From assembly GCA_035571115.1 (NCBI GenBank), contig DATMKR010000057.1, forward strand, positions 4,231-68,230: DNA of 64,000 nt, given 5' to 3'. Of the stretch, positions 6,524-47,422 are shown piece after piece (within the stretch, counting starts at the first letter, position 1; every line of letters begins with the position of its first letter). Under the pieces are notes generated by a model. It was given only the letters and a program-made list of their open reading frames with translations, made no database searches and was not told where the DNA came from. The stretch is from Candidatus Acidiferrum sp. GTDB lineage: Bacteria > Vulcanimicrobiota > Vulcanimicrobiia > Vulcanimicrobiales > Vulcanimicrobiaceae. The translations under genes and the position numbers were made by a program.

Positions 6524-6575
6524 GTCCTTCGACGGGGCTCAGGATGACAGCGCTAACGAGGCTCAGGACGACAAC
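6524..6575. repeat. Copy of the GC-rich palindromic repeat family (CCTTCGAC..GCTCAGGATGACA)
   Basis: The sequence is gtccttcgacggggctcaggatgacagcgctaacgaggctcaggacgaca, immediately after the lptD-like stop. The same core occurs at 22.9, 39.4, 41.9 and 47.3 kb. Confidence 0.5.
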
Positions 6576-7422
6576 GGTGACGGTGCTGTCGCTGGTGCTC
6601 GCGACTCTGCTCGTGGCCGCCGCCCCTACCGTTATCGTCAGCGGACAGCTGCTTGCCTATCAAGACGGCTTCGTCTTCTTCACGACCGGCGACGGCTTTC
6701 GCGTCGCGCCCGGCATCGTGATCCACGACGCGAAAACCGGCGGCACCACCCAGCTCGTGCCTGCGCCGCGCATCTGGGCCCGCGCCACTTTTGACGCCAC
6801 CGGCACCGTTACCGAACTCGATCTCTCGCGGGCGCCGTTGCCGCCCGAAGGGAACTTCGACGACGTGACGCGCTTCGCGGTTGCGGCGTCGTCGCCGGCG
6901 CCGAATCCGGATCTGCTCGCATATCAGAGTCTCGCCACACCGGCGCCCGGCCAGAGCGCCCCGGCAAACGTGAGCTACTCGGGCAAGCCGGTGCTCGTGA
7001 CGTTCATCGTGCAGGTCCCACCGACAACGCCGCTTACCTCGAGCGTTTACATCTCGACCGATCAAAGTGCATGGAGCGCACAAGCGATCCCCATGGACCG
7101 AATCGACGCGCTGCACTATGAGATCACGCGCCGGTATCCCTCGGGCACGATCTTTCACTATCTTTACGACCGCGGATCGCTTCAGTCGGAGGAGATCGCA
7201 CAGAACGGCCTCAATCGCAAACCACGCGATTTCATCGTCCCCGATGCCGACGTGCGTGTAGTTCGCGACACGGTTTACGGATGGCAAGACCAAGTGCCGG
7301 GAAGCATCAATCAGCAGCAGCCGCAGATCATGCCGACGCCCTACAACCCCGCACCGTTCCCAAATCTTCCGCCGGGAAAGCCTCCCGAACCGCCGCCCCA
7401 AAAGGCCCCACCGGCGCGCTAA
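6544..7422 (+). CDS. Secreted protein of unknown function with a Pro-rich C-terminus
   Basis: The track ORF starts at 6517 (ATGA overlap with the lptD-like stop). The Met at 6544 gives a cleaner signal peptide, MTALTRLRTTTVTVLSLVLATLLVAAAP. The central part (VLVTFIVQVPPTT..VYISTDQSAWSAQAIPMDRID..HY) is vaguely like a carbohydrate-binding Ig-type module. The start is uncertain. Confidence 0.6.
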   Translation: MTALTRLRTTTVTVLSLVLATLLVAAAPTVIVSGQLLAYQDGFVFFTTGDGFRVAPGIVIHDAKTGGTTQLVPAPRIWARATFDATGTVTELDLSRAPLPPEGNFDDVTRFAVAASSPAPNPDLLAYQSLATPAPGQSAPANVSYSGKPVLVTFIVQVPPTTPLTSSVYISTDQSAWSAQAIPMDRIDALHYEITRRYPSGTIFHYLYDRGSLQSEEIAQNGLNRKPRDFIVPDADVRVVRDTVYGWQDQVPGSINQQQPQIMPTPYNPAPFPNLPPGKPPEPPPQKAPPAR

Positions 7423-7473
7423 AGCGGACGACGATCCAGGGATGGCTCACGTCCGGGCCAACTTCGGGATTGC

Positions 7474-8832
7474 ATGAAGCGGCGGCCGGGAACCGATGTT
7501 TATAATGCGCTGGTCTGGGCGCTCTTTCTGGCGCTCGCATCGACGCTCTGCGTCATCGCCCACTGGCGTTACACGATCTTTCGCAACGACGTCGATCTCG
7601 GCATCTTCACCCAGGTGATCGCCGGCCTGGGGCACGGCTTTTCGAGCACCGCAGAGGGCGGAGTAAATCATCTCCTGGTTCATTGGTCTCCGATCGTCGC
7701 CACGGCGTGGCCGTTTGTGCGCGCTTTTGGTCCCGTTGGGCTCGAGTATTTCCAGGCTATCCTTGTCGCGGCAGTCATCTTCCCGATTTGGGGTTTGGCG
7801 CGAGCCAGGTTGCGCCCAGTCCCCGCGCTCGCGTTGGTCGCCGTCGCGGCACTCTATCCAATTCTGTGGGCAAACGGCGTCGGGGATTTTCACGAGATGG
7901 CCTTCGTGCCGCTCCTCTCCGCGACGCTGGTCTACGCTCTAGACCGGCGCCGCTGGTCGATGAGCATCGTGACGGCCCTGCTCCTGGCTTGCACGAAGGA
8001 GGACCAGTTCGTCGTTCTGGCGGTAAACGGCTTGCTCTTTGCGGCGACGGCGCGCTCGGACGTTCGAGCGGCGCGCATTGGATGGAGCATCTCCGGCTTA
8101 GCGATCGTAATGGCATTTGTATACTTCGGAGTCGTACGCCAAGCGCTAAACTCGCACGTGCCGTATCAGTCGCTCGAATTCTTCAACTGGGCCGGCGCTC
8201 ACGGCGGAGGGCAAAGTTTCGCATGGGCCGTGGTGCTTCCACGGATGCGCTACGTTTTGATAATCCTGGCCCCGCTGGCCTTCCTGCCATGCGTTTCTCG
8301 GTATGGACTCTTCTTGATTCCGGGATTCGTCGAAATCTTCGCCGCCCATCAGCCGGTCACGATCGTGCCGGGCGCGCACTACAGCGCGCTGCTGACGGGT
8401 TACGCGCTGGCGGGATTCGTCGATGGCGCTTCTCGATTAAGCCGGAACAAACCACGGCTCGCTACGGGGCTCGTCGTTGCGGCGGCGGCAGTTTCGATAT
8501 GCGTCGCCATTTTCGCGAGTCCGATGGAGTATTGGTACTACCTTTACCGGCCTCCGAACGCGCACGACGTGCTCCTCGAAGCGACTCTGAGGCGACTACC
8601 GCGGCAGGTAGATGTTGGGTCCGAAGATGAAATCTTTGCACACTTAGGCCTCGATCCGAACGCCTCCATCAACTTTAACCACCAGCGATGGTTCGTTTAC
8701 GACCGAACGCACTATTCGGAGCACTGGAAGAAAATCGACGCGCCGGCCGTAGGACGAGCACTCGCCCGCAAGGAGTATTCCGTGATTCGCGACCGCGACG
8801 GCATCGTAGTTCTCGAACGATCGGGCTCTTGA
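7474..8832 (+). CDS. Polytopic membrane protein, DUF2079-like
   Basis: 452 aa with many TM helices. The N-terminal FRNDVDLGIFTQVIAGLGHGF...NHLLVHWSPIV resembles the DUF2079 family as I remember it. Confidence 0.55.
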   Translation: MKRRPGTDVYNALVWALFLALASTLCVIAHWRYTIFRNDVDLGIFTQVIAGLGHGFSSTAEGGVNHLLVHWSPIVATAWPFVRAFGPVGLEYFQAILVAAVIFPIWGLARARLRPVPALALVAVAALYPILWANGVGDFHEMAFVPLLSATLVYALDRRRWSMSIVTALLLACTKEDQFVVLAVNGLLFAATARSDVRAARIGWSISGLAIVMAFVYFGVVRQALNSHVPYQSLEFFNWAGAHGGGQSFAWAVVLPRMRYVLIILAPLAFLPCVSRYGLFLIPGFVEIFAAHQPVTIVPGAHYSALLTGYALAGFVDGASRLSRNKPRLATGLVVAAAAVSICVAIFASPMEYWYYLYRPPNAHDVLLEATLRRLPRQVDVGSEDEIFAHLGLDPNASINFNHQRWFVYDRTHYSEHWKKIDAPAVGRALARKEYSVIRDRDGIVVLERSGS

Positions 8833-9281
8833 ACGTCTACCGGAAACTTGCGGCTCCGGCGCTGGGATTGCTCGCCGCCTGCTCGTTGATCGCCGTCGCC
8901 CGTGCTCAGGTTCCTTCGCCGCTTCCCGGCGTCTCGGCGGCACCTTCGCAAATGCCGTCGCCGGCACCGACGCCGACGATCGCCATTCTGCCACCGGACG
9001 CAGCGCCGCAGATTCTCTGGTGGCGCCTGAGCTCGACCACGCCGCAGGCCGGAGATACCCTTTCCGTCGTCGTGCTCACTTCTTCGAACGTTGCCAGCGT
9101 CGAACTAAGAATCGGCGGCTACGCGTTCAATTTGCCAAAGACCGACGTCGGTCACTTCGAAGGCGGCTACGTCGTTCCCCAGCTTCCGTTCTTCGTAAGC
9201 CACCAGCTGCTCATGTGGATCATCGCGCGAAACACCGCCGGCGTTCCGGTTGAGAACAGCGTCGAGATCCAAGTTCGCTAG
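8829..9281 (+). CDS. Small lipoprotein with a conserved C-terminal beta-rich domain; paralogue of 10712-11281
   Basis: TTG start at 8829 overlaps the upstream stop (TTGA). Signal/lipobox is LGLLAAC. The C-terminus PPDAAPQIL...SSNVASVELRIGGYAFNLPKTDVGHF...IARNTAGVPVENSVEIQVR aligns by eye with the C-terminus of the 10712-11281 product. Confidence 0.6.
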   Translation: MNVYRKLAAPALGLLAACSLIAVARAQVPSPLPGVSAAPSQMPSPAPTPTIAILPPDAAPQILWWRLSSTTPQAGDTLSVVVLTSSNVASVELRIGGYAFNLPKTDVGHFEGGYVVPQLPFFVSHQLLMWIIARNTAGVPVENSVEIQVR

Positions 9282-9290
9282 GAGGGTTCG

Positions 9291-10715
9291 CTAGTCGTTA
9301 TCCGGCGGCCGCGTATCGAGCGGCTGCTTAATGAAATAGTCTGCGTCGTATGCAGCTTTAATCTTGACGAACTTGCGCGGCGGCCGGTTGAAATCGAAGC
9401 AATCGGCTTGCGGTGACTTGGCGCGCTTGTCGCTGGCGGAGAGTCGCGCCAAACCGAACTGATCTTCGACGAATCTTAGAATGCTGCCGTGCTCGTAGTG
9501 CGTGTGCGAAACGAACCCTCGTTTTGCATATGGTGAAATAATCAGCAGCGGAAGGCGATATCCCAGCCCATCGTTGTCGACGTAGGCGGGCGGCTCCGGA
9601 TCGTACCAGCCGCCGGGGTCGTCCCAGAAGATGAAGATCGCGGTGGAGCTCCAAAACTGCGATTCGCCGATCGCATTGACGAGCGATGCGACCCAAGAGG
9701 GGCCCGTATCGGAACCGTTGCCGCCGTGATCGGAGTTTACGTACGTCGGCGTGACCCACGTCACCGCCGCAAGAGTGCCGTCCTTCACGTCGCTTAGGAA
9801 CTGTTGCGGCGGCGATTTAACGTCGGCGTTCCAGTCCGGACCGTAGCAAATGTGCTTGATGGTCTGGTAAGCGCTCCAAATCGCGGTGCGCTCGTCGTTG
9901 CCGTCCAGCTTGGGATCGCTGCCGCTACCGCAGAGGGTCCCGCTGCCCTTGGTTCCGAGGGGAACTGCGTAGAAGGCCCACGGCAAGCCTGCGGCGTCGA
10001 GCTCGTCGCCAAGCGTCGGAGGGTCCCAGCAAGGGAAGACCGAGCCGGTATCGTTTGTATTACGCTTCGCACCAAGGACTCCGACCGCATCGCCTGGGGC
10101 GCCCGGACAGCCCCACCCTTCGTCGGGATAGTCGTACGTATGGTCGGGATTGACGCCCGCGATGATATATTGGTGCGAGATAAAGCTGCTGACGTCGAAG
10201 TTCGAAGCGTACATCTCGTCAGCCAAAACGAACTGCCTCGCCATAGAAAAATATGGCGCCGTCTGCTTTCGGGGCACGTAACTATACGGCGGGTTCGCAT
10301 TCGGGCACCTCGGTTTTCCTGAGGCGCTACAGCCCCACACCTCATTGTCGAAGCCGTTCATCCGGCACTTGGTGCCTGGGATCTTCCCCGTGCCGTTACA
10401 CGATGCAAAGTACCCCTTGGCATTATGCTCGAGATCCCACTTTGTCGCGATCGTAACCGGCTGCAACTCGATTTTCTCGCCATTCGTGTTGTATCCATAC
10501 GTTGCCGTTTTGGCGCCCGGATAGCCGTAAAAAAGATTGTTAAAACTGCGATTCTCTTGAACGATGATGACGATGTGCGCAATCTTGCTCTGCGTTGCGT
10601 GCCGCGAGGCCGTCGGTGAGCTTCGCTGGTTGGGGACTGCCAGACCGGGCGACGCAGCGATGCCGCCGCACCCACCGAGAATCGCCGCGACCGCTATCGT
10701 CACCTGACGAATCAT
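9291..10715 (-). CDS. PLC/AcpA-family phosphoesterase lipoprotein (paralogue A)
   Basis: The start is taken at MIRQVTIAVAAILGGCGG (lipobox). Family motifs are IAHIVIIVQENRSFNNLFYGYPG and GYRLPLLIISPYAKRG. The ATGA overlap with the upstream lipoprotein gene supports this start. The track's longer ORF to 10805 is rejected. Confidence 0.85.
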   Translation of the reverse strand: MIRQVTIAVAAILGGCGGIAASPGLAVPNQRSSPTASRHATQSKIAHIVIIVQENRSFNNLFYGYPGAKTATYGYNTNGEKIELQPVTIATKWDLEHNAKGYFASCNGTGKIPGTKCRMNGFDNEVWGCSASGKPRCPNANPPYSYVPRKQTAPYFSMARQFVLADEMYASNFDVSSFISHQYIIAGVNPDHTYDYPDEGWGCPGAPGDAVGVLGAKRNTNDTGSVFPCWDPPTLGDELDAAGLPWAFYAVPLGTKGSGTLCGSGSDPKLDGNDERTAIWSAYQTIKHICYGPDWNADVKSPPQQFLSDVKDGTLAAVTWVTPTYVNSDHGGNGSDTGPSWVASLVNAIGESQFWSSTAIFIFWDDPGGWYDPEPPAYVDNDGLGYRLPLLIISPYAKRGFVSHTHYEHGSILRFVEDQFGLARLSASDKRAKSPQADCFDFNRPPRKFVKIKAAYDADYFIKQPLDTRPPDND

Positions 10716-11281
10716 CGAACGGTCAAAGGTATCGTGCGTTCGACCGCATCCCCGCGAGTGTTTTTTGCAATGACGCGCATCGTAAACGTTCCGCGAATGA
10801 ACCACGGCAGCGGCGCGACTTTGTACGTGAGCGCAAAGCGTCCCACGCCAGTTTTCGCGAGGGTCATTGCATAGCCCCCAATGCGAGCCTGCACGCTGGC
10901 GACGTTCGAGGTCGTAACGACCCTGCCGGAGACCGTGTCACCCGGTTGGACGGTCGTCTCGCTTACCGCGACCGCAAGAATCTGTGGTGCGGCGTCGGGG
11001 GGAAGGCGAGGAACTTTGACCGCAAGCCTGGGCGGCGTGGCGACGGGCGACGGTGGTGCCGTCGTCGTTCGCGAGGCCGATGACGGGCTGGGAAGCCCCG
11101 CAGCTGGGGCCGTGCTCCGGGCGGGGACGACTCCCGCTTTCCCGGCGGCGCTCCGCGAAACGGCCGCCGGCGGCCGGGTTCGCGACGTCGGCTGCCCCCC
11201 GCTTGGTGCGGCCGCATGGGCGCAGCCGGCAAGCCAGAGCGAAGCCGCGCCGATGGCCAGGGCCGAACGGGCGTTAGGCAT
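10712..11281 (-). CDS. Lipoprotein with a Pro/Ala/Ser-rich linker and conserved C-terminal domain; paralogue of 8829-9281
   Basis: Start at MPNARSALAIGAASLWLAGC (lipobox). The C-terminus is PPDAAPQILAVAV...TTSNVASVQARIGGYAMTLAKTGVGRF...IAKNTRGDAVERTIPLTVR. Its stop overlaps the phosphoesterase start. Confidence 0.65.
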   Translation of the reverse strand: MPNARSALAIGAASLWLAGCAHAAAPSGGQPTSRTRPPAAVSRSAAGKAGVVPARSTAPAAGLPSPSSASRTTTAPPSPVATPPRLAVKVPRLPPDAAPQILAVAVSETTVQPGDTVSGRVVTTSNVASVQARIGGYAMTLAKTGVGRFALTYKVAPLPWFIRGTFTMRVIAKNTRGDAVERTIPLTVR

Positions 11282-11357
11282 GCGCCCTAGTTCTTGGAGC
11301 CCGCGCACTTTCCGCTCGGGGTGACAACGGCGGTGAGGTGTTGAAAACTCCTGCGGC

Positions 11358-12314
11358 ATGGCCGATTCTGCACGCCCCACCTTTAGCATCGTGGTCCCCC
11401 TGTATAACGAAGCCGAAAACGTTGCGCCGCTGCTGGCGCGAATCTCGGCGGCGATCGAGCCGCTAAGAGCACAGTTCGATCACGAGATCGTGCTGGTGAA
11501 CGACGGCAGCACCGACGGCACGCTTGCCGCGATCCGCGCCGAAATGCACCGGCGGACTCAGACCGTGCTGGTCAACCTGTCGCGCAACTTCGGCCATCAG
11601 CTCGCGGCGACCGCCGGAATCGAAATCGCGACGGGCGACGCGGTGATCTTAATGGACGGAGACTTGCAAGATCCGCCCGAGCTGATCGAGGATTTTCTGC
11701 GAAAGTGGCGCGAGGGCTACGACGTCGTGTACGCGGTTCGCCGCACTCGCAAAGGCGAGAGCCGTTTCAAACTCTTGACCGCGCGAGCGTTCTACCGAAT
11801 TATCAAACGCCTGACCAAAATTGCGATTCCACTGGATACCGGAGACTTTCGGTTGATGAGCCGGCGGGCTGTCGAAGCCGTCCGGCGACTGCCCGAACGC
11901 CATCGCTTTCTTCGTGGAATGGTAAGCTGGGTTGGATTCAACCAGGCCGCGATCGAGTACGATCGTGACGTACGCTACGCCGGCGAGACGAAGTATCCAC
12001 TCTCCAAGATGCTTCGCTTCGCGATGGACGGCATCACCTCGTTCTCCGACGTCCCGCTGCGCTTTGCATCCTATTTCGGGTTCACGGTCAGCGTCATCGC
12101 CTTCGTCTACGCGGTGGTCGTCATCGTGATGAAAACGTTCAGCCTGAAGCCGGCATTCTACACGCCGGGATGGGCCTCGACGATCGTCGCCGTTCTCTTT
12201 CTGGGCGGCGTGCAGCTGATGAGCCTCGGCATCCTCGGTGAGTATCTCGGACGCGTCTATGACGAAGTCAAAGGCCGCCCGCTCTATATCATCAGCGACA
12301 TCGAACGATCTTGA
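11358..12314 (+). CDS. Polyprenyl-phosphate glycosyltransferase (GT2, DPM1/GtrB/ArnC-like)
   Basis: 318 aa with FSIVVPLYNEAENV, LVNDGSTDGT, LMDGDLQDPPE, plus two C-terminal TM helices typical of GtrB/ArnC-type enzymes. Confidence 0.85.
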   Translation: MADSARPTFSIVVPLYNEAENVAPLLARISAAIEPLRAQFDHEIVLVNDGSTDGTLAAIRAEMHRRTQTVLVNLSRNFGHQLAATAGIEIATGDAVILMDGDLQDPPELIEDFLRKWREGYDVVYAVRRTRKGESRFKLLTARAFYRIIKRLTKIAIPLDTGDFRLMSRRAVEAVRRLPERHRFLRGMVSWVGFNQAAIEYDRDVRYAGETKYPLSKMLRFAMDGITSFSDVPLRFASYFGFTVSVIAFVYAVVVIVMKTFSLKPAFYTPGWASTIVAVLFLGGVQLMSLGILGEYLGRVYDEVKGRPLYIISDIERS

Positions 12315-18212: not shown

Positions 18213-18354
18213 CCCTCGTCGTTCTAAAGTGGGTCGAAGGCCCCCGAGGTTCCCCTTGAGCGAAGGAACGGGGGCACGGCGCGCGAACGAGCCCGCCGTG
18301 ATGCGGGGCTCCGAGCCTCGCGTACTACGCACTATTATCCAATCGGAGCAATGA

Positions 18355-19350: not shown

Positions 19351-19409
19351 ATCTCGCACGCGGCGGTGTCCTCACCGGGACACCGCCGCGCGGTTGCGAA
19401 GGACGCGGC

Positions 19410-20974: not shown

Positions 20975-20976
20975 GG

Positions 20977-22896: not shown

Positions 22897-22975
22897 ATCC
22901 TTCGTCCTTCGACCCTTCGACCCTTCGGCAAGCTCAGGGCAGGCTGAGCTCAGGGCAGGCTGAGCTCAGGGTGAC
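22897..22975. repeat. Copy of the GC-rich repeat family with internal short tandem duplications
   Basis: The sequence is ccttcgtccttcgacccttcgacccttcggcaagctcagggcaggctgagctcagggcaggctgagctcagggtgac. CCTTCGAC is iterated and GCTCAGGGCAGGCTGA is duplicated. It is related to the in-frame ileS copy at 41.8 kb. Confidence 0.5.
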
Positions 22976-31603: not shown

Positions 31604-31616
31604 ACCGGCACGCTCC

Positions 31617-32590: not shown

Positions 32591-32600
32591 TGGCCCGCAA

Positions 32601-33653: not shown

Positions 33654-33663
33654 CGCGACGCTA

Positions 33664-34218: not shown

Positions 34219-34229
34219 CGCTCCGTGTC

Positions 34230-36162: not shown

Positions 36163-36182
36163 TTATAACAATCTTTTGACTG

Positions 36183-38263: not shown

Positions 38264-39368
38264 GCTTCTCGCTAAAGACGGTAACGCGCGGCGCGGGCGG
38301 CTGCAGCTCGCGCACGGAATCGTGGAGACGCCGTGTTTTATGCCGGTGGGGACGGCGGGGACGGTCAAGGGATTGACGCCGGCCGAGCTGGTGGAAGCGC
38401 AGTCGCAGATCGTGCTTGCGAACACGTATCATCTCTGGTTGCGGCCCGGACTGGAGACGATCGAGCGCGCAGGCGGCCTCCATGCATTTATGGCTTGGGA
38501 ACGGCCAATTCTTACGGATTCGGGCGGCTTTCAGGTTTTCAGTTTGGAGAGCAGGCGTGAGGTCGATGACGACGGCGTCACGTTTCGGTCGCATCTTGAT
38601 GGGAGCGAGCATCGGTTCACGCCCGAGAACGTTGTCGCGTTTCAAGAGGCCGTCGGGAGCGATGTTGCGATGGCGCTCGATGTGTGCGTGAAGCTTCCCG
38701 CGGCGCGTGACGCGCTCGAAGAGTCGGTGCGTCTGACGACCCTCTGGGCTCAGCGCTCCGCCGCCGCGCGCACGGTGCCGGCGACGGCGCTCTTTGGGAT
38801 CGTACAAGGCGGGTTAGAGCCGGCGTTGCGAGAGCGCAGCGCGCGCGAGTTGGTGGCGCTCGATTTTCCTGGGTACGCGATCGGTGGACTCTCCGTCGGC
38901 GAGACGCGCGAGCAGATGTACGCGACCGCACGCGTAACGGCGGCGATACTTCCGAAAGAGAAGCCCCGCTATCTCATGGGCGTCGGGACCGTTCGCGACC
39001 TTCTGGAAGCGATCGATGCCGGGCTGGATCTCTTCGACTGCGTCTACCCGACGCGCTGTGGACGCAACGGACGCGCGATGACTCACGACGGCGAGCTCAA
39101 CCTCTTCAATGCCGCCTTCACGCGCGATTTCGCGCCGGTCGATCCGCGCTGCGACTGCGACACCTGCACGACCTTCTCGCGCGCGTATCTCTCCCATCTC
39201 TTCCGCAGCAAGGAGATGCTCGGGCCGCGCCTGCTCTCGCATCACAACGTGTATCTCGTCAACGCGCTGATGCGCGAAGCACGCGCGGCGATCGAGGCGC
39301 GGGAGTGGACGAACTTTCGGGAATGCCGGCGTGGGTGGCTGGGTCATCCTTCGACAGGCTCAGGATGA
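38256..39368 (+). CDS. tgt: Queuine tRNA-ribosyltransferase
   Basis: Motifs: TDSGGFQVFSL, LFGIVQGG, DCVYPTRCGRNG, and the zinc site CDCDTCTTFSRAYLSHL. The last roughly 8 codons and the stop lie in repeat-derived sequence. Confidence 0.9.
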   Translation: MFELLAKDGNARRGRLQLAHGIVETPCFMPVGTAGTVKGLTPAELVEAQSQIVLANTYHLWLRPGLETIERAGGLHAFMAWERPILTDSGGFQVFSLESRREVDDDGVTFRSHLDGSEHRFTPENVVAFQEAVGSDVAMALDVCVKLPAARDALEESVRLTTLWAQRSAAARTVPATALFGIVQGGLEPALRERSARELVALDFPGYAIGGLSVGETREQMYATARVTAAILPKEKPRYLMGVGTVRDLLEAIDAGLDLFDCVYPTRCGRNGRAMTHDGELNLFNAAFTRDFAPVDPRCDCDTCTTFSRAYLSHLFRSKEMLGPRLLSHHNVYLVNALMREARAAIEAREWTNFRECRRGWLGHPSTGSG

Positions 39369-39380
39369 CATCGACAAGCT

Positions 39381-39795
39381 CAGGATGACACTGGGAGTCC
39401 AAATTCCTCAGCGTCTGCGCGAAGCGCAGTCCTGAGCAAGGCTCCTGAGCTTGGCGAAGGGGCCGAGTCGAAGGGTCAGGATGACACTGGGAGTCCAAAT
39501 TCCTCAGCGTCTGCGCGAAGCGCAGTCCTGAGCAAGGCTCCTGAGCTTGGCGAAGGGGCCGAGTCGAAGGGTCAGGATGACACTAGGAGTCCAAATTCCT
39601 CAGCGCCTGCGCGAAGCGCAGTCCTGAGCGAGGCTCCTGAGCTTGGCGAAGGGGCCGAGTCGAAGGGTCAGGATGACATCGACAGCATGACACTAGGAGT
39701 CCAAATTCCTCAGCGTCTGCGCGAAGCGCAGTCCTGAGCAAGGCTCCTGAGCTTGGCGAAGGGGCCGAGTCGAAGGGTCAGGATGACACTGGGAG
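39381..39795. repeat. Tandem array of a 96-bp unit (4 full copies plus a partial copy)
   Basis: Units start at 39381, 39477, 39573 and 39669, with a partial unit at 39779. Units 1 and 2 are identical. Unit 3 differs at 3 positions. Unit 4 carries a 14-nt insertion. Each unit contains the hairpin CTGCGCgaaGCGCAG and the motifs TCCTGAGCAAGGCTCCTGAGC and GTCAGGATGACAC. Confidence 0.9.
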
Positions 39796-42600
39796 GGCGC
39801 GCACGACGCGCGTGCAATCCGCGCAAATATCGGGATGATCGGGATCCTCGCCGAGCTCCCGGTACTTCCAACACCGCACGCACTTGGCTCCGTCCGCGGG
39901 CAATAACTCGAAGGCTTCCGCTTCGCCCGAGCTCAGCGTCAACTGGGAGACGACCAACGCCTCACGCAGGTTGTCGCCAAGCGCGAGCAGCCGCTTGTAG
40001 ACCGCGGGGGGCACCGTAAGGCGCACCTGCGCCTCGAAGTCGCGCGGCTCCGCCGACGCCGCCACTCGGGCGCGCAGGGCGCGCAGTTGGCGCCAGAGCA
40101 CGAGGTCGCTTTCCGCGGCAGCGTTTCGGGACCGGTTTACATCGAAGGAACTGTCGAAAACGCTTTCGGTCCGCTCTCGGCGCCATTGGGGAAGATGCTG
40201 CCACGCCTCCTCCGCGGTAAACGAAAGCACGGGCGCGACCGTCGTGAAAAATCGCGTCGCGATGTAGAGCAGCGCCGACTGTGCGCTGCGGCGGCGTGGA
40301 TCGCCGGCAGCGCGCGAGTAGAGCGGATCCTTGAGCGCGTCGAAAAAGAGGCTCGACATCGAGCTTTCGAACTCGACGATGCGCAGATAGGCATCGTGTA
40401 TCTCGCAGGAATCGTACGCCTCTTTAACGCCGGCGACGAACGCGTCGGTCACGCTGCAGGCAAGCCGGTCGATCGGCTCCATCGCTTCGCGCGCGACGAC
40501 GTCCGCGGCGGAAAGGTCCTCCAGATTCGAGAGCATGAAGCGCATGCGATTTCGCAGGTTTCGGTAGACGCGTCCGACTTGGTCGACGACGTTGGGCCCG
40601 AAGCGCACGTCGTCGATGGGCTCGACCGAGGCAGCCCACAACCGTAAGACGTCGGCGCCCCAGCGGGCCATCGCATCGCTCGCGTCGATGCCGGTTCCCC
40701 GCGATTTCGACATGGGGCGGCCTTCTTCGTCGTTCACCCAGCCGTTCTTCATCACGCGCCGGTACGGCGCGCGGCCTTTGATCGCGACGGCCGTGATGAG
40801 CGAGCTGCGAAACCAGCCTCGGAACTGATCGCCGCCCTCGAGAACGAGGTCGCTCGGCCACGGCATCCCATCGCGTCCCAGCACGGCGAGGTGGGTCACT
40901 CCCGACTCAAACCAAATGTCGACGACGTTCTTCTCTTTTTCGAGATCGCAACCACCGCAGCGCGGACAGACGAAGCCGTCGGGAAGATAGGTCTGCACCG
41001 GATCGCTCCACCACGAACCTGCGCCGGCCTCGGCAAAACGTTTCGCGGCAATGCGCGCCACGCGCGGATCGAGGATCGCCTCGGCGCACTCTTTGCAGAC
41101 TAAGGACGGAATCGGCGTTCCCCACGTTCGCTGCCGCGAAAGACACCACTCGGGATGCGTTTCGATCATCTGCCGCTGGCGCGCACGCCCCCATTGCGGC
41201 GCGTACTCGACTGCGTCGGTCGCGTCGAGCGCACGCTGGCGAAGCAGGTTTTGATCCATCGCGAGAAACCACTGCGCCGTCGCGCGGAAAATCACGGGAT
41301 TGTGACAGCGCCAGCAATGTGGATAGGAATGCTGGTACTCCGCCGCGCTCCACAGCGCACCGCTCGCGCGCAAGTCGTCGACGATGCGCGCATTGGCCGC
41401 GAAAATGTTCATGCCGGCGTAGGGCCCGGCCTCGGCCGTAAAACGGCCGGCCGCATCGACCGGATTGAGAATCGGCAGACCGTATTTCATTCCCGTATCG
41501 AAATCGTCGGCCCCGTGCCCGGGCGCAGTGTGAACTGCTCCCGTCCCGGTCTCGAGGTCCACGTACGGCGCGAGCACGATCGTCGAATCGCGCTCCATGA
41601 ACGGATGGCGCACGGCGAGTCCGTCGAGCCGTTCGCCAAGTGCGCGGCCAATCAGCGTCGCCTCTGCGAATCGCTCGCCCAGCGCGCGTTGCGCGAGCGC
41701 CTCGGCGACGATCAGCATCTCGCCGTCCACGCGATAGAGCCCGTAGGTCGCGTCGGCGCGCAAAGCGATGGCCACGTTTGCCGGAAGCGTCCACGGCGTC
41801 GTCGTCCAGATGAGGAATGAGACTGGGATCGCAGTGTCACCCTGAGCCAGCCTGCCCTGAGCGCTGTCGAAGGGAAGGGCGACACTGCCAGCGCCATCAT
41901 GCTTCGGCGGGCTCAGCATGACACCGAGGATCCGTTCCCGCTGCTCGTCGTTCGCGGCGAAGCGAACGTAGATCGAAGGTGACGTGCGCTGCTCGTACTC
42001 GATCTCGGCCTCCGCCAGCGCCGTCTCGTCGTGGACGCACCAGAGCGTCGAGCGCAAACCCTTATAGATTTGTTGGCGCTCGGCCAGATCGGCAAGCGCG
42101 TTTACGATCGTTGCTTCAAAAGAGGGATCGATCGTGCGGTACGGATGGTCGAGGAAGCCGAAGGTACCCATCCGCCTCCGCTGCTCTCGTTGACGCTCGA
42201 GCCAGTAGAGAGCGCGTTCTTTGCACTGCGCGCGCAGTTCGAGCGGATCGACGGCGTGAAAATCCTTGATTCCCAAATACTTGAGCGTTTCGTACTCGAT
42301 GGGGAGTCCGTGCATGTCCCAGCCGGGAACGAACTTCGCGTACTTCCCGTCGAGCAGTGCGATCTTCACGAACATGTCCTTGAGCACCATGTTTAGGAAA
42401 TGGCCCATGTGCAGCTCGCCGTTCGCATACGGCGGCCCGTCGTGCAAAATCCACGCACCGCTCGGCGCGTTGCGCTCCAAGCGCCGTTCGTACGTACCTT
42501 GCTCGTTCCACCACGCGACGCGCTGCGGCTCTCGCTTGGAAAGATCCGCCTTCATCGGAAAGGCGGTCTTCGGCAGATTCAACGTGTTCCGGTAATCCAT
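39778..42600 (-). CDS. ileS: Isoleucine--tRNA ligase (type 1)
   Basis: Start at MDYRNTLNLPKTAFPMKADL (ATG 42600, TGATG overlap with the csaB stop). Motifs: PYANGELHMGH, WTTTPWTLPAN, KMSKS-like RPMSKSRG, and a C-terminal Zn motif CVRCWKY...CADC. The 124-aa upstream extension in the track (to 42972) is an artefact. Confidence 0.95.
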   Translation of the reverse strand: MDYRNTLNLPKTAFPMKADLSKREPQRVAWWNEQGTYERRLERNAPSGAWILHDGPPYANGELHMGHFLNMVLKDMFVKIALLDGKYAKFVPGWDMHGLPIEYETLKYLGIKDFHAVDPLELRAQCKERALYWLERQREQRRRMGTFGFLDHPYRTIDPSFEATIVNALADLAERQQIYKGLRSTLWCVHDETALAEAEIEYEQRTSPSIYVRFAANDEQRERILGVMLSPPKHDGAGSVALPFDSAQGRLAQGDTAIPVSFLIWTTTPWTLPANVAIALRADATYGLYRVDGEMLIVAEALAQRALGERFAEATLIGRALGERLDGLAVRHPFMERDSTIVLAPYVDLETGTGAVHTAPGHGADDFDTGMKYGLPILNPVDAAGRFTAEAGPYAGMNIFAANARIVDDLRASGALWSAAEYQHSYPHCWRCHNPVIFRATAQWFLAMDQNLLRQRALDATDAVEYAPQWGRARQRQMIETHPEWCLSRQRTWGTPIPSLVCKECAEAILDPRVARIAAKRFAEAGAGSWWSDPVQTYLPDGFVCPRCGGCDLEKEKNVVDIWFESGVTHLAVLGRDGMPWPSDLVLEGGDQFRGWFRSSLITAVAIKGRAPYRRVMKNGWVNDEEGRPMSKSRGTGIDASDAMARWGADVLRLWAASVEPIDDVRFGPNVVDQVGRVYRNLRNRMRFMLSNLEDLSAADVVAREAMEPIDRLACSVTDAFVAGVKEAYDSCEIHDAYLRIVEFESSMSSLFFDALKDPLYSRAAGDPRRRSAQSALLYIATRFFTTVAPVLSFTAEEAWQHLPQWRRERTESVFDSSFDVNRSRNAAAESDLVLWRQLRALRARVAASAEPRDFEAQVRLTVPPAVYKRLLALGDNLREALVVSQLTLSSGEAEAFELLPADGAKCVRCWKYRELGEDPDHPDICADCTRVVRALPVSS
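41819..41925. repeat. Repeat-family copy embedded in frame in ileS
   Basis: The minus strand reads ggtgtcatgctgagcccgcc...cccttcgacagcgctcagggcaggctggctcagggtgacact and encodes GVMLSPPKHDGAGSVALPFDSAQGRLAQGDTAIPVS just before IWTTTPWT. It closely resembles the intergenic copy at 22.9 kb and has inverted termini GTCATGCTGAGC / GCTCAGGGTGAC. Confidence 0.5.
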
Positions 42601-43697
42601 CACTCGTCGTCCAAGAGCTCGCCGAGGACCTCGAAGTTTCGCTCTGCGGCCGCCTGGACAACCGGGAGGCGCTGCGCCAACGCAGCCGAGAGACGATCGC
42701 GCTCGGAGACGAGCCGGTCGACGAGCGCGTCGATCGCGCCGTCGCTCGGGCGCGGTCTGCCTGGAATCCAGAGCGGCTGCAAAGGATAGTCGAGATCCTC
42801 GCAGAGCGCCGTCACTTTCGGATCGTACGGTATGGCGAGAAATGGGACGGCGAAGCGCGCGGCGAGAACCAGCGCGTGCAGACGCATACCGATCGCGAGG
42901 CGAGCGCCCTGTAAAATCGCGGCTGCCTTTTCGAGCGTGCACTCGGGAAGCAGCACGGGCGCCGACGAGCAAGCGCGAATGACGTCGGTCGACAGGGCAG
43001 CATCGGGCGCGCCTCCCAACGGCAAAAAGGCCGCACGCACGTTGTGGCGGTCTGCGAGGCGATCGACGGCCCGCGCGAGGACGGGTATCCCATCCCGGAA
43101 CGATGCGGCCTTTCGCACGCTGATCACGGCATAGGCGCCGCTCTCCGGCCCGAGGCCGTCGGCCGCAAGATCGTCACGCGCTGCAGGCCGGTCGTACAAA
43201 AAGACGGGATCCGCGGTGCGCTCGACCGGCGCGCCGGGCAAGAGATCCTTGAGCAAACGCAGCGACCGCTCGTCGCGCACGGTTGCCCGATCGAGGCCCC
43301 TGCAGAAGCCTCGCACCACCCAGCGCCCCCAAAAATCGAGCGGTCCGATGGATTGAGCGAAGATCATCGCTTTGCGTCCGCTGCGAATCGCTTCGCGCAA
43401 AACCGCAGCGTAATAGAGCAGGCTGCGCAGGCTCGTTTCGTTTTGCAAGAGACCTCCGCCGCCGGAGAGCACGACGTCGGCCCGTCCGATGGCGGTGCGA
43501 ACGGCGCGCCAATCCCATCGAGCCGTCGCGTCGACGCGATAGGCGGCTGCGGTACGCTGAGGTGTTGCCGATAGCACTTCGATCGATGCCGCGGGAAAGT
43601 CACGGCGCAGACGCTCGACGATCACCTCGAGCAGCGCCTCGTCGCCCAAATTGCCAAAGCCGTAATAGCCGGAGATCAGTACGCGCGCCCTTTCGAC
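42600..43697 (-). CDS. csaB: Polysaccharide pyruvyl transferase CsaB
   Basis: Motifs: VLISGYYGFGNLGDEALLEVIVERL, VVLSGGGGLLQN. The start is unresolved: no ATG/GTG/TTG lies in frame between the upstream gene's stop (43727) and the conserved N-terminus. The track ORF to 44351 is an Arg-rich overlap artefact. Confidence 0.75.
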   Translation of the reverse strand, partial: VERARVLISGYYGFGNLGDEALLEVIVERLRRDFPAASIEVLSATPQRTAAAYRVDATARWDWRAVRTAIGRADVVLSGGGGLLQNETSLRSLLYYAAVLREAIRSGRKAMIFAQSIGPLDFWGRWVVRGFCRGLDRATVRDERSLRLLKDLLPGAPVERTADPVFLYDRPAARDDLAADGLGPESGAYAVISVRKAASFRDGIPVLARAVDRLADRHNVRAAFLPLGGAPDAALSTDVIRACSSAPVLLPECTLEKAAAILQGARLAIGMRLHALVLAARFAVPFLAIPYDPKVTALCEDLDYPLQPLWIPGRPRPSDGAIDALVDRLVSERDRLSAALAQRLPVVQAAAERNFEVLGELLDDE

Positions 43698-43726
43698 GGA
43701 GCCTGTCCCCGGCGTGGAAGAAGGCC

Positions 43727-45730
43727 TCAGGACAAACTCCGGCGGTAGAGGCTGCGTCGATAGATCCAGATCAGCGCCGCCCCGACGATCGCGCCCGCGA
43801 CGAGCCCATTGAGGATTCGCAAGACCGAAATCTCGAGCGGGGTGTGCAGGTGCGAAAACGTGTCGATAACGTCGCCAATCCCGACCCCGATGCAGAGCGC
43901 CAAGAGCCAGCCTACCGCGCGCCGGTGCGGCGGCAGCAAGGCCGGCAGTACCATCATGGCGGGAACGCCGATCAAGAACTCCTTGAAGCGAGGACGGACG
44001 CTCAGCGTGGCGGTCAGGAGATGGCGAAACGCGAGCTCGAAGGGCGAAGGCGAGACTTCGCTGTCGTTGCCGCTGCGCACGAGCATCAGCGCGCCGGCGG
44101 CAACGATCGCGATCCCCGCCAAGAGCTGATAGGTCAGGACCGGCGAGAGAAAGACGTCCCGCGGCCGCTCGACGCCCGAGCCGAAACGCCGGTCGAACAG
44201 GTAGAGCGCCAGCGCGATGAGCGGCGGCAGCGCCAGGACGAGCCGGACGCCTCGGAAGCGCTCGATCTCCTCCATTGCCAGCGGCGCGCTCATGACGCCG
44301 ACGACGACGAGCGCGCCGAGCAGCGCGACGCCCGTCGCCGCGAGGGTCCAACCAAGGCTGCGGACGAGCTGAGTGCCGGCGCCGCTCGCGGGCGTTTCAT
44401 TCCAGGCCGGGATCAAAATCAAGATTGCCGCGGTCGCGAAGAGCAGCGCGCCGGCGAGCGCGATGGCGGAGCGCGCGAATGCGTCGTGATGCGTCAGTAC
44501 TCCCGCGAGGTACAGCGCGATCGTCGCGCCGTAAGCGATGACGGCAATTCGACGCCCGTACAAGCCGAAGAATTCGAGCAGCAGCACGAAAATCGACGGG
44601 ACGGCTAGCGCCGCCAGCCCTACCAGAACCCGATTGTTGCCGCGATACGCAGGAATCGGCGTGGCCCGCCCCAGACGAAAACCGCCGGCGCGCAGCTGAT
44701 CCGCGATCTGCTTGACCATTTCGACATTGGTCGCCTCGACCGAAAGATCTCCATCTTGGTGCGCCCACGGACGCAAGTACGCGACTCGGACGTTGCGTTC
44801 GCGAACGCCCAAGACGTATCGCGCGACAACCTCGTCGAGCTTGAGCTTATCCAGTTCGGTTTTCGCGATAGCCTGAACGCGAACCGTCCGGCCGGGAATG
44901 AGCCGCGCAAGGGTGTCGTTGCCCTTCTGCACTTGACTGGGATCGTACGTCTCGATCGACCCGAAGTTGAAGAGGTGACGTTTGAAGGCTTCCGCCGTAT
45001 CCTCCAGATGATCGGGATAACCGGCAACCGCATTGCTCAACCCGGAGAAGATAACCGTCGAGACCTTCGGGTCGTAGGCAAGCACATCGTCGAAAAGCGC
45101 TTCGATCTGCGGCGCGCGAAAACGCTCGTCATTTTGAAAACGCGGAACAACCAGTAGCCCGAGCCGGTGTGCCAGCGCGATTTCGTCCGTTGGGATGCCT
45201 AAGCCGATCGCGTCGAAGTAGTCGATTTGCGTCCGGACCTCGATAAGCCAGGGGCGAGTCGCCCGCAAGACCCGCACGCTCTTGGGGCTAAAATGCAACG
45301 AAAGCTGGGCCAAATAACGTCGATACGTCGAGGAATCCGATACCAGGAGATAGATGGCCCCGGCGTCGACGCGCCGGCCGGCGACCAAGGAGGCCAGCAA
45401 GGGATCGCGGAGCGGGGAGAGTCGCGACTGATTGAGGAGCGCCGCCCCGGTCGTCGCATAAGACTTTCCGTTGTAGCCGACGTTCGCGCCGAGCTCTTCG
45501 GTGAGGGCCAGCGAGGTTAGGCCCGCACGCCGCAGCGCGATCAGGAATGCGGCGGGATTATAGTTGTACGAGCGCGCGAGAGCATCGAGATCGCTGAAAT
45601 CCATGGCGAGTTCGACGCGGTTTGCGTGCGATTCCGTGCGAAGGCGAAATCCCGCGACGGCCAGCGAGGCGATTAGTGCGACGAGCAAGACGACGGCCGC
45701 GTAGCGCGTCCTGGGAGTAAAAAGAGTCAC
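43727..45730 (-). CDS. Large membrane protein, DUF5693-like (csaB-associated)
   Basis: 667 aa with an N-terminal TM helix, a roughly 330-aa extracytoplasmic domain, then about 8 TM helices. The family assignment comes from memory of csaB neighbourhoods and is not verified. Confidence 0.6.
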   Translation of the reverse strand: MTLFTPRTRYAAVVLLVALIASLAVAGFRLRTESHANRVELAMDFSDLDALARSYNYNPAAFLIALRRAGLTSLALTEELGANVGYNGKSYATTGAALLNQSRLSPLRDPLLASLVAGRRVDAGAIYLLVSDSSTYRRYLAQLSLHFSPKSVRVLRATRPWLIEVRTQIDYFDAIGLGIPTDEIALAHRLGLLVVPRFQNDERFRAPQIEALFDDVLAYDPKVSTVIFSGLSNAVAGYPDHLEDTAEAFKRHLFNFGSIETYDPSQVQKGNDTLARLIPGRTVRVQAIAKTELDKLKLDEVVARYVLGVRERNVRVAYLRPWAHQDGDLSVEATNVEMVKQIADQLRAGGFRLGRATPIPAYRGNNRVLVGLAALAVPSIFVLLLEFFGLYGRRIAVIAYGATIALYLAGVLTHHDAFARSAIALAGALLFATAAILILIPAWNETPASGAGTQLVRSLGWTLAATGVALLGALVVVGVMSAPLAMEEIERFRGVRLVLALPPLIALALYLFDRRFGSGVERPRDVFLSPVLTYQLLAGIAIVAAGALMLVRSGNDSEVSPSPFELAFRHLLTATLSVRPRFKEFLIGVPAMMVLPALLPPHRRAVGWLLALCIGVGIGDVIDTFSHLHTPLEISVLRILNGLVAGAIVGAALIWIYRRSLYRRSLS

Positions 45731-45782
45731 GAAGCGAGTGCTTTCGACCAGCAGCGGAGTTTTTCTGCCACCGAATCACAGA

Positions 45783-45805
45783 AGGGCTCGCCATAGGCGA
45801 GCCCT
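45783..45805 (-). terminator. Possible stem-loop terminator downstream of the enoyl-CoA hydratase gene
   Basis: AGGGCTCGCC-ata-GGCGAGCCCT is a perfect 10-bp stem. The downstream U-tract on the minus strand is weak (ttctgtgattc). Confidence 0.3.
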
Positions 45806-45962
45806 CCTGCCGTCGCGTATGCGCGGTTCCCTTTTTGTCGGGCCACGCATACCGGGTGTGGGCGACGCTCGTTGTGTCATCGCGTACGCTCGCTGCCCAT
45901 GAATCGAGTGACGCGGAAGCACGGCCTTCAAGGGTAGCAGATTATTACCTTCAGGGGAAGCG

Positions 45963-46745
45963 TTACCATTTCGGCGCGCGCTTTTCCAGAAATGCGCTGA
46001 TGCCTTCGCGTGCATCGGCCTCGAGCGCGTTTGTGGTCATCACTCCTTTGGTGTAATCGTACGCGGATGCTTGATCTAGATCGACCTGCGCATAAAACGC
46101 CGCTTTGCCGATGCCGACGACCGTCGCGCTAGCCGACGCGATTTCGCGCGCAAGCGCAAGCGTCTCGGCATGGAGGCTCTCCGGCGCAACGACGCGATTG
46201 ATCAACCCCCAGTCGAGTGCCGTCTGCGCGTCGATCGGCTTGCCGGTAAGCAGCATCTCCATTGCGCGCTTGCGCCCGATCGCACGCGACAGCGGCACCA
46301 TCGGCGTACTGCAAAAGAGGCCGATGCGCACGCCCGGAGTGGCGAACGTGGCCTCCCTCGACGCAACGGCGAGGTCGCACGCGGCCACCAGCTGGCAGCC
46401 CGCGGCGGTCGCGACCTTTTCGACCTCCGCGATAACCGGTTGCGGAACGGTCGCGATGCGCGCCATCAAAGCGACGCAGGCGTCGAAGATGACGCGATAC
46501 GTCTCGACGTCGCGGTCGAGCAGTTCGCGCAGGTCGTGACCCGCGCTAAAGGCGGGGCCCTCTCCTCGCAGGACGATGGCGCGAACGGCGGCGTCTTGCC
46601 CGGCTGCGGCCAGCGCGCCCTCGAGCTCACGCATCATACTTAATGAGAGCGCGTTGCGTTTTTCGGGGTGGTTCATGGTGATGACGGCGACCTCGCCGTC
46701 ACGCGCTGCCGTGATTTCGATGTACGCGGGGTTTACCGTGGGCAT
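45963..46745 (-). CDS. Enoyl-CoA hydratase/isomerase (crotonase) family
   Basis: Start at MPTVNPAYIEITAARDGEVAVITMNHPEKRNALS. Also GEGPAFSAGHDLRE. The track extension to 47090 overlaps the upstream gene in another frame. Confidence 0.8.
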   Translation of the reverse strand: MPTVNPAYIEITAARDGEVAVITMNHPEKRNALSLSMMRELEGALAAAGQDAAVRAIVLRGEGPAFSAGHDLRELLDRDVETYRVIFDACVALMARIATVPQPVIAEVEKVATAAGCQLVAACDLAVASREATFATPGVRIGLFCSTPMVPLSRAIGRKRAMEMLLTGKPIDAQTALDWGLINRVVAPESLHAETLALAREIASASATVVGIGKAAFYAQVDLDQASAYDYTKGVMTTNALEADAREGISAFLEKRAPKW

Positions 46746-46750
46746 TCTCA

Positions 46751-47287
46751 CTACCTCGGGGGCGACGGGGATGGCGACGGCGAGGCCGGCGGTGATGGCG
46801 GGGCCGACGGCGAGGGCGCCGGCGGTGATGGCAGGGCCGACGGCGCCGCGGAGGGCATCGCCGCGCGCGCTGCTTTCGCCCACGGCGGGTCGGCCTTCGT
46901 CGACACGCCGTGGTGCAGGGAGGCGCGGCTCTGGGCTGCGTATCGGGAATGCGGAAAGTGCACCTTCACGTAGACGTAGAGCCTCACGGCGTGTTCGCGT
47001 GCAACGTCGCCGGGAAGTTCGGCATAGAGCGCTGCGAGAAGAAGCCCCGTCGACGCGAGCCACGGATCGTTTGGGTAACGCGCGGCCCAATGATCGAACG
47101 AATCTTCCGTTAGAAGCAGCAGATGCTCCGCCTGTTCGGGGAGGAGGTGATGCGTCTCGTATCGCTGCTTGAGCTGCATCGTTTCATAGCGGACGCGCAG
47201 CGCGCTCATATTTAGTTTGCCGAAGTATTCGTCGGCCGGCGCGTTCGTGACGGCAAGTTGGGAGAGCAGGACGACGCACGTAAGCAT
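46751..47287 (-). CDS. Hypothetical protein with a Pro/Ser-rich C-terminal tail
   Basis: 178 aa with a short hydrophobic N-terminus (MLTCVVLLSQLAVTNA) and a PSPPAPSPSAPPSPPASPSPSPSPP tail encoded by a 33-bp tandem duplication. No family recognised. Confidence 0.5.
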   Translation of the reverse strand: MLTCVVLLSQLAVTNAPADEYFGKLNMSALRVRYETMQLKQRYETHHLLPEQAEHLLLLTEDSFDHWAARYPNDPWLASTGLLLAALYAELPGDVAREHAVRLYVYVKVHFPHSRYAAQSRASLHHGVSTKADPPWAKAARAAMPSAAPSALPSPPAPSPSAPPSPPASPSPSPSPPR

Positions 47288-47310
47288 GTCCGGCTTTACC
47301 CACGCCGCGG

Positions 47311-47422
47311 CCCTTCGACAAGCTCAGGAGCCTTGCTCAGGATGACAATGGGCGATGACGGCCCTTCGACGCGGCCCCTTCGACAAGCTCAGGAGCCTTG
47401 CTCAGGATGACAATGGGCGATG
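47311..47422. repeat. Perfect 47-bp direct repeat (two copies, 65-bp period) of the repeat family, abutting tRNA-Val
   Basis: cccttcgacaagctcaggagccttgctcaggatgacaatgggcgatg occurs at 47311-47357 and 47376-47422. The last 9 nt of copy 2 are the 3' acceptor end of tRNA-Val. Confidence 0.85.

Follow-up and report, generated by a model that had tools for sequence, protein, structure and literature searches.

A short GC-rich palindromic repeat, scattered through the genome of an uncultured soil member of the Eremiobacterota, is probably the cognate hairpin of an Ssn-type GIY-YIG nuclease with a single domain, and would form a new class of such hairpins. The model for this type is SsnA of Neisseria, which is paired with a hairpin motif termed SRM (NTS or dRS3 in Neisseria). 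The repeat was noticed in a 64,000-nt stretch (G000:C57:4231-68230, here called the window), for which the original prediction had described one repeat family at five loci, joined to gene ends, and had compared it to REP (repetitive extragenic palindromic) or MITE (miniature inverted-repeat transposable element) sequences. The window comes from a metagenome-assembled genome (MAG) of 2.79 Mb in 152 contigs, with 62% GC and 98.99% completeness. It was compared with 18 other genomes of the genus, which the names of homologues point to as Ca. Cybelea (Eremiobacterota), and with 12 genomes of other genera. The partner gene on contig C125, a strand signature TGTCAY, polar arrays of half-sites and a core shared among many phyla are additions to the first description.

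The repeat family in the window is confirmed. The sequences CCTTCGAC and GCTCAGGRTGAC(A), with their complements, can be read at all five loci, and the half motif GCTCAGGRYGAC, with at most one mismatch, occurs 16 times where 1.7 matches are expected, a number reached by none of 100 shuffled sequences. Thirteen of these matches lie inside the five loci, and the three others (2321, 11314 and 53069) look like chance. The 22-nt core as first written has only two matches in the window at up to two mismatches, both within 39348-39389, because most copies are partial, variant or expanded. Recurrence beyond the window, on which the idea of a dispersed family depended, is plain. A genome-wide count gives 285 copies of GCTCAGGRYGAC; TCAGGATGACA, with 290 copies, is the commonest 11-mer of the genome; and about 169 robust repeat loci occupy 12.6 kb altogether. 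The pattern TGAGC-X-GTCGAA, where X is a variable segment, is found 213 times with an X of 2 nt and 32 times with an X of 3 nt (245 cores), compared with about 3.6 expected per spacing. Given that arrays coincide with contig breaks, the copy number in the MAG is a lower bound. Thirteen repeat loci lie less than 200 bp from contig ends, and contigs C125 and C55, for example, begin in arrays.

The conserved unit is strand-specific and can be written 5'-TGTCAY-NN-TGAGC-X-GTCGAA-N'N', where NN and N'N' covary and X extends from 2 nt up to a hairpin of about 60 nt, the longest examples being in Verrucomicrobia. On the 5' side of TGAGC, TGTCATCC is present in 70-90% of copies; on the 3' side of GTCGAA, GG follows in 81-89% of copies and then ATGAC in only about 55%. 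In its compact form the unit is a 27-mer, GTCATCC-TGAGCYTGTCGAA-GGATGAC. With the outer stem as sole anchor, 69 copies from this genome and 21 from other phyla are invariant at all 13 interior positions save position 6, which is C or T. Covariation was scored in 140 distinct copies from loci of many phyla. The three pairs adjacent to the core are formed in 137, 137 and 140 of these sequences, with 59, 36 and 15 double changes (pair types CC/GG, GC/GC, GG/CC, AT/AT, AC/GT and GT/AC), and in a control with slid alignments the number of such cells falls from 141 to at most 47. The outer 5' GTCA is at least 90% conserved in the same set, although the bases that would pair with it fail to do so in 40-58% of sequences; it is therefore a one-sided sequence signature and not part of a stem. 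Likewise, because X may be a long hairpin, TGAGC and GTCGAA make up an internal element of a longer hairpin rather than a loop. A plain 7-bp stem with a 13-nt loop was considered as a description and dropped, given the long hairpins at X and an outer arm that is unpaired in about half of the copies. Some copies, at G000:C27:40250-40330 and elsewhere, sit at the tips of much longer perfect palindromes that are particular to each copy, for example GGGAAGCTCTGCTAAGGTCGTT-hairpin-AACGACCTTAGC..CAGAGCTTCCC, where the flanking sequence is itself duplicated in inverted orientation.

The candidate enzyme was found outside the window. Of three PF01541 matches in the genome, one is a 399-aa frame, one a 102-aa gene resembling UPF0213, and one a 127-aa frame on the minus strand of contig C125 (G000:C125:403-786, E 2e-16). 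The C125 protein has a conserved core of about 95 amino acids, and a GIY-YIG domain at residues 4-76 is its sole Pfam domain. Upstream of its gene lie copies of GTCATCCTGAGC...GTCGAAGGATGAC, and downstream an array of CCTTCGAC..GCTCAGGATGACA with units of GGTCATCCTTCGACAGGCTCAGGATGACA. Close homologues (54-92% identity) occur in 14 of the 18 genus genomes, whereas the 12 genomes of other genera hold distant matches only (29-42%). The exact motif follows the same division, being present in 16 of the 18 and in none of the 12, with 0-120 copies per genome and the most in the genome described here. All eight genomes with more than 20 copies carry the gene.

The bracket around the gene is strict. 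Each of the 18 homologue loci in the genus has GTCAYCCTGAGC-X-GTCGAAGG upstream and CCTTCGAC-X'-GCTCAGGRTGACA downstream, and X' is the reverse complement of X even where X is a 20-nt hairpin. Inverted-repeat scores of the flanks are 42-202 at 17 of these loci and 29 at the last (L147), where the upstream flank is cut by a contig end. UPF0213-like genes from this genome and from sister genera score 23 or less, and the repeat-flanked nucleases and the UPF0213-like proteins form separate clades (support 99/95). Residues Y7, Y17, G19, R27, H31 and E65 are invariant in 27 repeat-flanked nucleases, and neither of the small GIY-YIG proteins of the genome matched a family in NCBIfam.

REP, BIME and REPIN sequences of Enterobacteria and Pseudomonas occur as hundreds of short GC-rich extragenic palindromes, often in composite arrays, and the gene for the cognate Y1 HUH transposase, the RAYT (REP-associated tyrosine transposase), is itself flanked by repeats. 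Mobilisation by such an IS200/IS605-like enzyme is suggested here by the hundreds of copies of a short palindrome rich in GC, which are often clustered and lie for the most part at the boundaries of genes, and by the fact that REPs too are recognised as hairpins in single-stranded DNA (ssDNA) (discussion of PMC11893778). The search for a RAYT that had been proposed with the first description was, however, negative: the genome has no match to PF01797 despite its completeness, in a profile search that finds the family in six of 14 reference genomes used as a control. In addition, the sole gene that is consistently bracketed by the repeat encodes a GIY-YIG protein. The RAYT explanation is therefore largely refuted and scarcely credible.

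The other established model is the classical MITE, which is derived from an insertion sequence (IS), has no gene of its own and is moved in trans by a DDE transposase acting at terminal inverted repeats, in this case TGTCATCCTGAGC, with TGTCAYCCTGAGC as the ends of the parent IS. It would account for the inverted termini, for the differences in presence and absence between relatives and for an 11-nt direct repeat around one element, next to tRNA-Val. In 85 complete copies, however, direct repeats are no commoner in the flanks than in shuffled versions of them. The conserved part is a hairpin interior with a one-sided GTCA and not two equivalent ends, elements are as short as 22-27 nt, and between such ends no transposase gene was seen, but only the GIY-YIG gene. 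A transposase-driven MITE is thus very unlikely. The REP/MITE label is partly right as a description of dispersed palindromes at gene ends, but fails with respect to the machinery, with neither a RAYT nor an excess of target-site duplications.

By inspection, the interior of the unit can be drawn as T:A, G.A, A.G and G:C, with tandem G.A/A.G pairs closed by a 5-nt loop or by the longer variable hairpin X, a scheme that would hold solely on the TGTCAY strand. The Y-GA-R context favours tandem sheared G.A pairs in DNA, and both strands of the interior fit it. A nearest-neighbour DNA fold of the hairpin gives -6.3 kcal/mol (z = -3.3), and the complement is about equal. A hammerhead-like reading of CUGAGC...GUCGAA was rejected by inspection, given that the interior does not match the G8/A9 positions of the CUGANGA core. 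An Rfam search of the window gave tRNA-Val alone at the gathering score, a search of 39300-39850 at E values up to 10 gave nothing meaningful, and a literature search for the literal motif strings gave primer coincidences only.

The unit could instead serve the host, as a transcript-end hairpin, an mRNA stabiliser or a protein binding site under selection, with the nuclease gene merely a frequent neighbour. Many copies do lie just after stop codons or tRNA 3' ends, and stability above that of shuffled sequence (z about -3) would be in keeping with such a role. Against it, the copies show no orientation bias to the adjacent gene (52:37 after 3' ends, 38:38 before 5' ends), and they have no T-run and no Rfam match. 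Species of a single genus have anything from 0 to 120 copies, orthologous sites are occupied in some relatives and not in others, and copies are also found inside coding sequences. Chance neighbourhood would not lead one to expect a nuclease gene bracketed at 18 of 18 loci. A host-serving element is therefore quite unlikely.

The hairpin extends far beyond the genus. The exact 22-mer CCTTCGACARGCTCAGGRTGAC was found in at least 117 stretches from genomes of 29-73% GC and at least a dozen phyla, as judged from record titles, in which MAG labels may be wrong in single cases. Among the matches listed are Bacteroidota, including cultured Pedobacter, Mucilaginibacter, Aquimarina, Flagellimonas, Croceitalea and Massilibacteroides, as well as Verrucomicrobiota, Nitrospirota, Chloroflexota, Patescibacteria, Bacillota, Pseudomonadota, Zixibacteria, Calditrichota, Spirochaetota, Binatia, Nitrospinota and others. 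The TGAGC/GTCGAA bracket also surrounds homologues of the nuclease gene in three other phyla, represented by one MAG each of Verrucomicrobiae (three copies), Crocinitomicaceae and Clostridia, and other paralogues in these three MAGs are bracketed by different repeats of the GTCAT-plus-hairpin type. The Crocinitomicaceae MAG (G031) has six paralogous small GIY-YIG genes (L183, L188, L191, L193, L195 and L197), most of them bracketed by an inverted hairpin class of their own, with only a downstream hairpin seen at L195; it looks like a set of parallel nuclease/motif pairs. A protein from a record labelled Candidatus Binatia (P0040) is 74% identical to the Cybelea nuclease, which suggests either a recent cross-phylum transfer of the element or a binning error.

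A slippage-prone palindrome could also spread passively, by recombination or gene conversion alone, with the flanks of the nuclease gene as a favoured landing site. Local tandem expansion is indeed rampant and locus-specific. A Nitrospirota MAG (G035; L001 and L109) has 116 canonical SRM-type hairpins, GTCATTCCCCGACTTGATCGGGGAATC, with compensatory variants GCCC/GGGC and CCGG/CCGG, and these often adjoin TGAGC/GTCGAA hairpins; no intact small GIY-YIG gene was found among its four PF01541 matches. Passive spread does not explain why the hairpin interior is identical in genomes of 29-73% GC and at least a dozen phyla, an identity that calls for a sequence-specific constraint. Nor does it explain why the right flank of a given gene carries the reverse complement of the X found in its left flank, or why the motif and the close nuclease homologues share a genus-level distribution. 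Passive spread alone is therefore unlikely. The same Nitrospirota MAG had been considered as an anchor of the canonical SRM for the clade and was dropped, given that no small GIY-YIG gene was found.

The repeats are also arranged with a clear polarity. In 86 arrays of at least two 5' half-sites (GTCAYCCTGAGC), with periods mostly of 15-26 nt, a complete hairpin forms the 3'-most unit in 78 cases and the first unit in only 11, and among units other than the last, 27 of 183 are complete. Arrays from other phyla behave in the same way, with the 3'-most unit complete in nine of 10 and the first in two of 10. Half-sites therefore gather 5' of one complete hairpin, which is the side where SsnA cuts its substrate. 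SsnA, a GIY-YIG protein of 94 amino acids in CDD family cd10448, binds the NTS hairpin (CGTCATTCCCGCGMAVGCGGGAATCYRG) as ssDNA only and cuts a few nucleotides upstream of it, with the upstream flank setting the orientation (Chenal et al. 2025, Nat Commun 16:2388, PMC11893778). It is inactive on double-stranded DNA, on RNA and on the reverse strand, and it acts in a setting of ssDNA uptake in Neisseria (PMC11893778). Homologues of ComEC and DprA are present in the genome described here, so ssDNA uptake is possible, which is not specific evidence for the pairing.

By analogy with SsnA, a mechanism may be proposed for the C125 nuclease and its repeat. In the full element, the nuclease gene stands between two inverted units whose TGTCAY ends face outward, and the approximately 170 other loci would be gene-less copies of the element ends. 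The nuclease would bind the folded hairpin in ssDNA only and cut a few nucleotides 5' of it, as SsnA does (PMC11893778), and the predicted ssDNA substrate is the strand with TGTCATCCTGAGCCTGTCGAAGG. Repeated nicking followed by faulty repair on the 5' side could then spread copies and build the polar arrays, which hint at slipped or template-switched repair after nicking. Copies that land in gene ends would replace C-termini and stop codons, as in tgt and ileS, and those that land in permissive loops would persist as in-frame inserts, as in ileS. That GTCA is conserved on one strand and that arrays grow on the 5' side are indirect hints that fit one-sided cleavage of ssDNA.

A bolder version of this proposal goes further. 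The TGAGC/GTCGAA hairpin might define a separate, cross-phylum class of Ssn specificity, and the nuclease might drive a new form of DNA mobility, in which an ssDNA nick 5' of the hairpin and template switching or slipped repair would give rise both to polar arrays and to new gene-less copies, including in-frame copies in essential genes. This version is speculative and rather doubtful. If it were true, the enzyme would be a GIY-YIG ssDNA 'hairpin spreader', similar in outcome to the RAYT/REP pair and unrelated to it.

Several observations weigh against the pairing of an Ssn-type nuclease with this repeat. Membership of the Ssn family is well supported by architecture, that is by size, fold, the arrangement of the flanks and the separation from UPF0213, which is short of proof, and the best solved-structure matches of the C125 protein are UPF0213 proteins (E 8e-11). 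The published SRM pattern has 19 matches in the genome and 13 in a reversed control, none of them in the repeat family. Nucleases flanked by TGAGC/GTCGAA are not monophyletic within the repeat-flanked clade (3 changes), and at L183, in Bacteroidota, the flanking units face the other way round. In four genomes of the genus the motif is present in 5-14 copies but no close homologue was found, two of these genomes being only 77% and 85% complete. No bias in repeat orientation with respect to GC skew was detected (48:44), in a test that is weak with 152 contigs. The SRM pattern does find the NTS consensus and the canonical hairpins of the Nitrospirota loci; as a test of membership it was judged too narrow, given that it misses every non-canonical flank examined.

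The copies in the window are listed in Table 1.

Table 1. Copies of the hairpin repeat in the 64,000-nt window (window coordinates).
Position	Strand	Repeat	Context
6524-6575	+	Two repeat units, CCTTCGACGGGGCTCAGGATGACA + GCTCAGGACGACA	Just 3' of conserved ATG 6517 of secreted-protein gene
22897-22975	+	Copy with both halves tandem-expanded: CCTTCGNC x4, AGCTCAGGGCAGGCTG x2.6, end GCTCAGGGTGAC	Intergenic
39347-39389	+	Complete 27-nt hairpin GTCATCCTTCGACAGGCTCAGGATGAC + 20-nt tandem half-unit	Holds last codons of tgt, TGA 39366-39368
39380-39795	+	Composite tandem array, 96 nt x 4.2	TRF score 685
41819-41925	-	Composite two-hairpin copy	In frame inside ileS (...GVMLSPPKHDGAGSVALPFDSAQGRLAQGDTAIPV...), variable loop before WTTTPWT
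47311-47422	+	Two tandem units, 65-nt period	Abut 3' end of tRNA-Val (47413-47487, minus)

How these copies differ between species can be seen from G017, which is the closest relative, with a nucleotide identity of 86-91%. The units near the start of the secreted-protein gene may lie in frame in the N-region of the signal peptide, or else may supply an alternative start at ATG 6544. The latter, proposed at first as a plausible start, is a possible one, but the conserved ATG 6517 is also the start in G017, which has no repeat at this site. The intergenic copy at 22897-22975 is matched in G017 by a repeat with other tandem units (GCTCAGGATGGCATTACCGC).

The tgt gene (Pfam TGT, E 1e-148) ends with ...GHPSTGSG-TGA at 39368, and the last 96-nt unit provides the final codons of ileS on the minus strand (...ALPVSS-TGA, stop at 39778-39780). 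As first claimed, the repeat thus supplies the ends and stop codons of both genes, and the two stops lie within the repeat in G017 as well. Each 96-nt unit has a tail of TCAGGATGACA, a mini-hairpin of CTGCGCGAAGCGCAG and nested TCCTGAGC...GTCGAAGG hairpins, and the module recurs on contigs C13 and C24. The centre of CTGCGCGAAGCGCAG, which occurs at 39405-39425 and in every 96-nt unit, is GCGAAGC, the classic extra-stable DNA mini-hairpin. The gap between tgt and ileS is 449 nt long, compared with about 60 nt of repeat in G017, and the array has therefore expanded in the lineage of the genome described here.

The copy inside ileS is translated in frame, in agreement with the original prediction, and is polymorphic. 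When 21 relatives are aligned with it, about 11 species of the genus prove to have no insert at the site (for example ...ILNAM-SAV-DFDGKVSFLIWTTTPW), and different inserts of the family occupy it in this genome (about 27 extra residues), in G017 (a two-hairpin element) and in G018 and G009; G011 has a degenerate hairpin of nine codons. The frame of ileS runs about 120 codons upstream of the likely start (MDYRNTLNLPKT..., window 42600-42972) in an Arg/Ala-rich extension, which is probably a mere open frame in GC-rich DNA.

At tRNA-Val, the final 9-11 nt of the tRNA are present a second time within the unit. G017 has one unit there, and this genome has an extra 65-nt tandem unit; in both species the element is bracketed by the 11-nt direct repeat AATGGGCGATG, a duplicate of the tRNA 3' end. 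In the whole genome, a repeat lies within 60 nt past the 3' end of five of 48 tRNA genes and before the 5' end of none. The comparison of insertion sites that had been suggested thus reveals differences in copy number and occupancy at ileS, at 6524-6575, between tgt and ileS and at tRNA-Val, as expected of a mobile or unstable element. Elsewhere in the window, a 33-nt x 2.2 tandem repeat (also read with 12- and 18-nt periods) lies at 46761-46845 inside a minus-strand open reading frame (ORF) at 45963-47090 and is unrelated to the hairpin family.

Fusion to genes is common throughout the genome. By rough gene calls, 35 of the 169 loci fall within ORFs and a further 55 or so overlap ORF ends, although some '5' end' and 'internal' cases are artefacts of longest-ORF calling. 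By inspection of the consensus, four of the six frames are open (FDRLRMT, LRQAQDD, VILSLSK and HPEPVEG) and two end in TGA (PSTGSG-stop and SS-stop), which is why gene-end fusions arise. The view that the repeat yields translatable peptides, takes over gene ends and is tolerated in frame is borne out by these frames, by the tgt and ileS stops and by the ileS insert.

With these results, the dominant repeat in the genome of an uncultured member of the Eremiobacterota gains a candidate enzyme, where the usual practice would be to label it REP or MITE. It appears that the Ssn/hairpin concept of 2025 also takes in a second, very widespread class of hairpin that the published pattern misses. The TGAGC/GTCGAA class, conserved letter for letter in genomes of 29-73% GC and at least a dozen phyla, is a candidate for a new specificity of ssDNA cleavage. 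Clues to how such repeats spread come from the polarity of the half-site arrays and from the way in which a single ileS loop has been colonised in frame again and again. For annotation, the repeats matter because they extend or truncate real genes and yield spurious ORFs (PSTGSG, FDKLRMT, LRQAQDD, VILSLSKDD and HPEPVEG), and they also break assemblies.

Among known systems, the UPF0213/YhbQ proteins (PDB 1ZG2 and 1YWL) are the best structural match to the C125 protein and have the same size and fold, but the UPF0213-like genes of this genome and of sister genera have no inverted-repeat flanks (score 23 or less) and form a separate clade (99/95). The REP/RAYT pair resembles the system described here in its short GC-rich palindromes, its hundreds of copies, its clustered arrays and an enzyme gene flanked by repeats; the partner here is a GIY-YIG nuclease, a kind of enzyme not known to transfer strands, and no RAYT was found in the genome. 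The Rickettsia palindromic elements (RPE) are likewise palindromes that are inserted in frame in unrelated and even essential genes and translated (PMC10969869). They are about 100-150 bp long and restricted to Rickettsia, whereas the unit described here measures 22-27 nt, is found in many phyla and has a GIY-YIG gene as its partner. The RPE review names no mobilising enzyme and does not mention GIY-YIG proteins (PMC10969869).

The closest system is Ssn/SRM. In Neisseria, the NTS-ssnA-NTS layout resembles an insertion sequence, with inverted hairpin repeats of 20-50 nt; 42% of SsnA homologues are flanked by SRM on both sides, many nuclease/motif pairs exist across phyla, and the spread of the repeats was left open (PMC11893778). 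Residues Y6, Y17 and E64 are essential in SsnA (PMC11893778). There are also differences. The hairpin described here has an asymmetric, invariant interior, TGAGC/GTCGAA, with a variable apex, whereas the SRM is a perfect ATTCCCGCG/CGCGGGAAT stem. The published pattern, HGTCWYN(0-2)YYVSBRHN(0-5)WNVSBRGN(0-2)RNCYNB, misses this hairpin, with agreement only in the 5' TGTCAY part. NTS copies are rare in genes (2%, PMC11893778), compared with the 35 of 169 loci inside ORFs and about 55 at ORF ends found here, and polar half-site arrays are prominent in this family. The likenesses are nonetheless extensive. Both systems have a single-domain GIY-YIG gene of about 94-95 amino acids between inverted hairpin repeats of 20-50 nt, and tens to hundreds of gene-less copies of the same repeat. 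In both, a conserved 5' flank of the GTCAT type orients the repeat, TGTCAY here resembling the published 'HGTCWY', and many nuclease/motif pairs are spread across phyla, with copy numbers that vary strongly within a genus.

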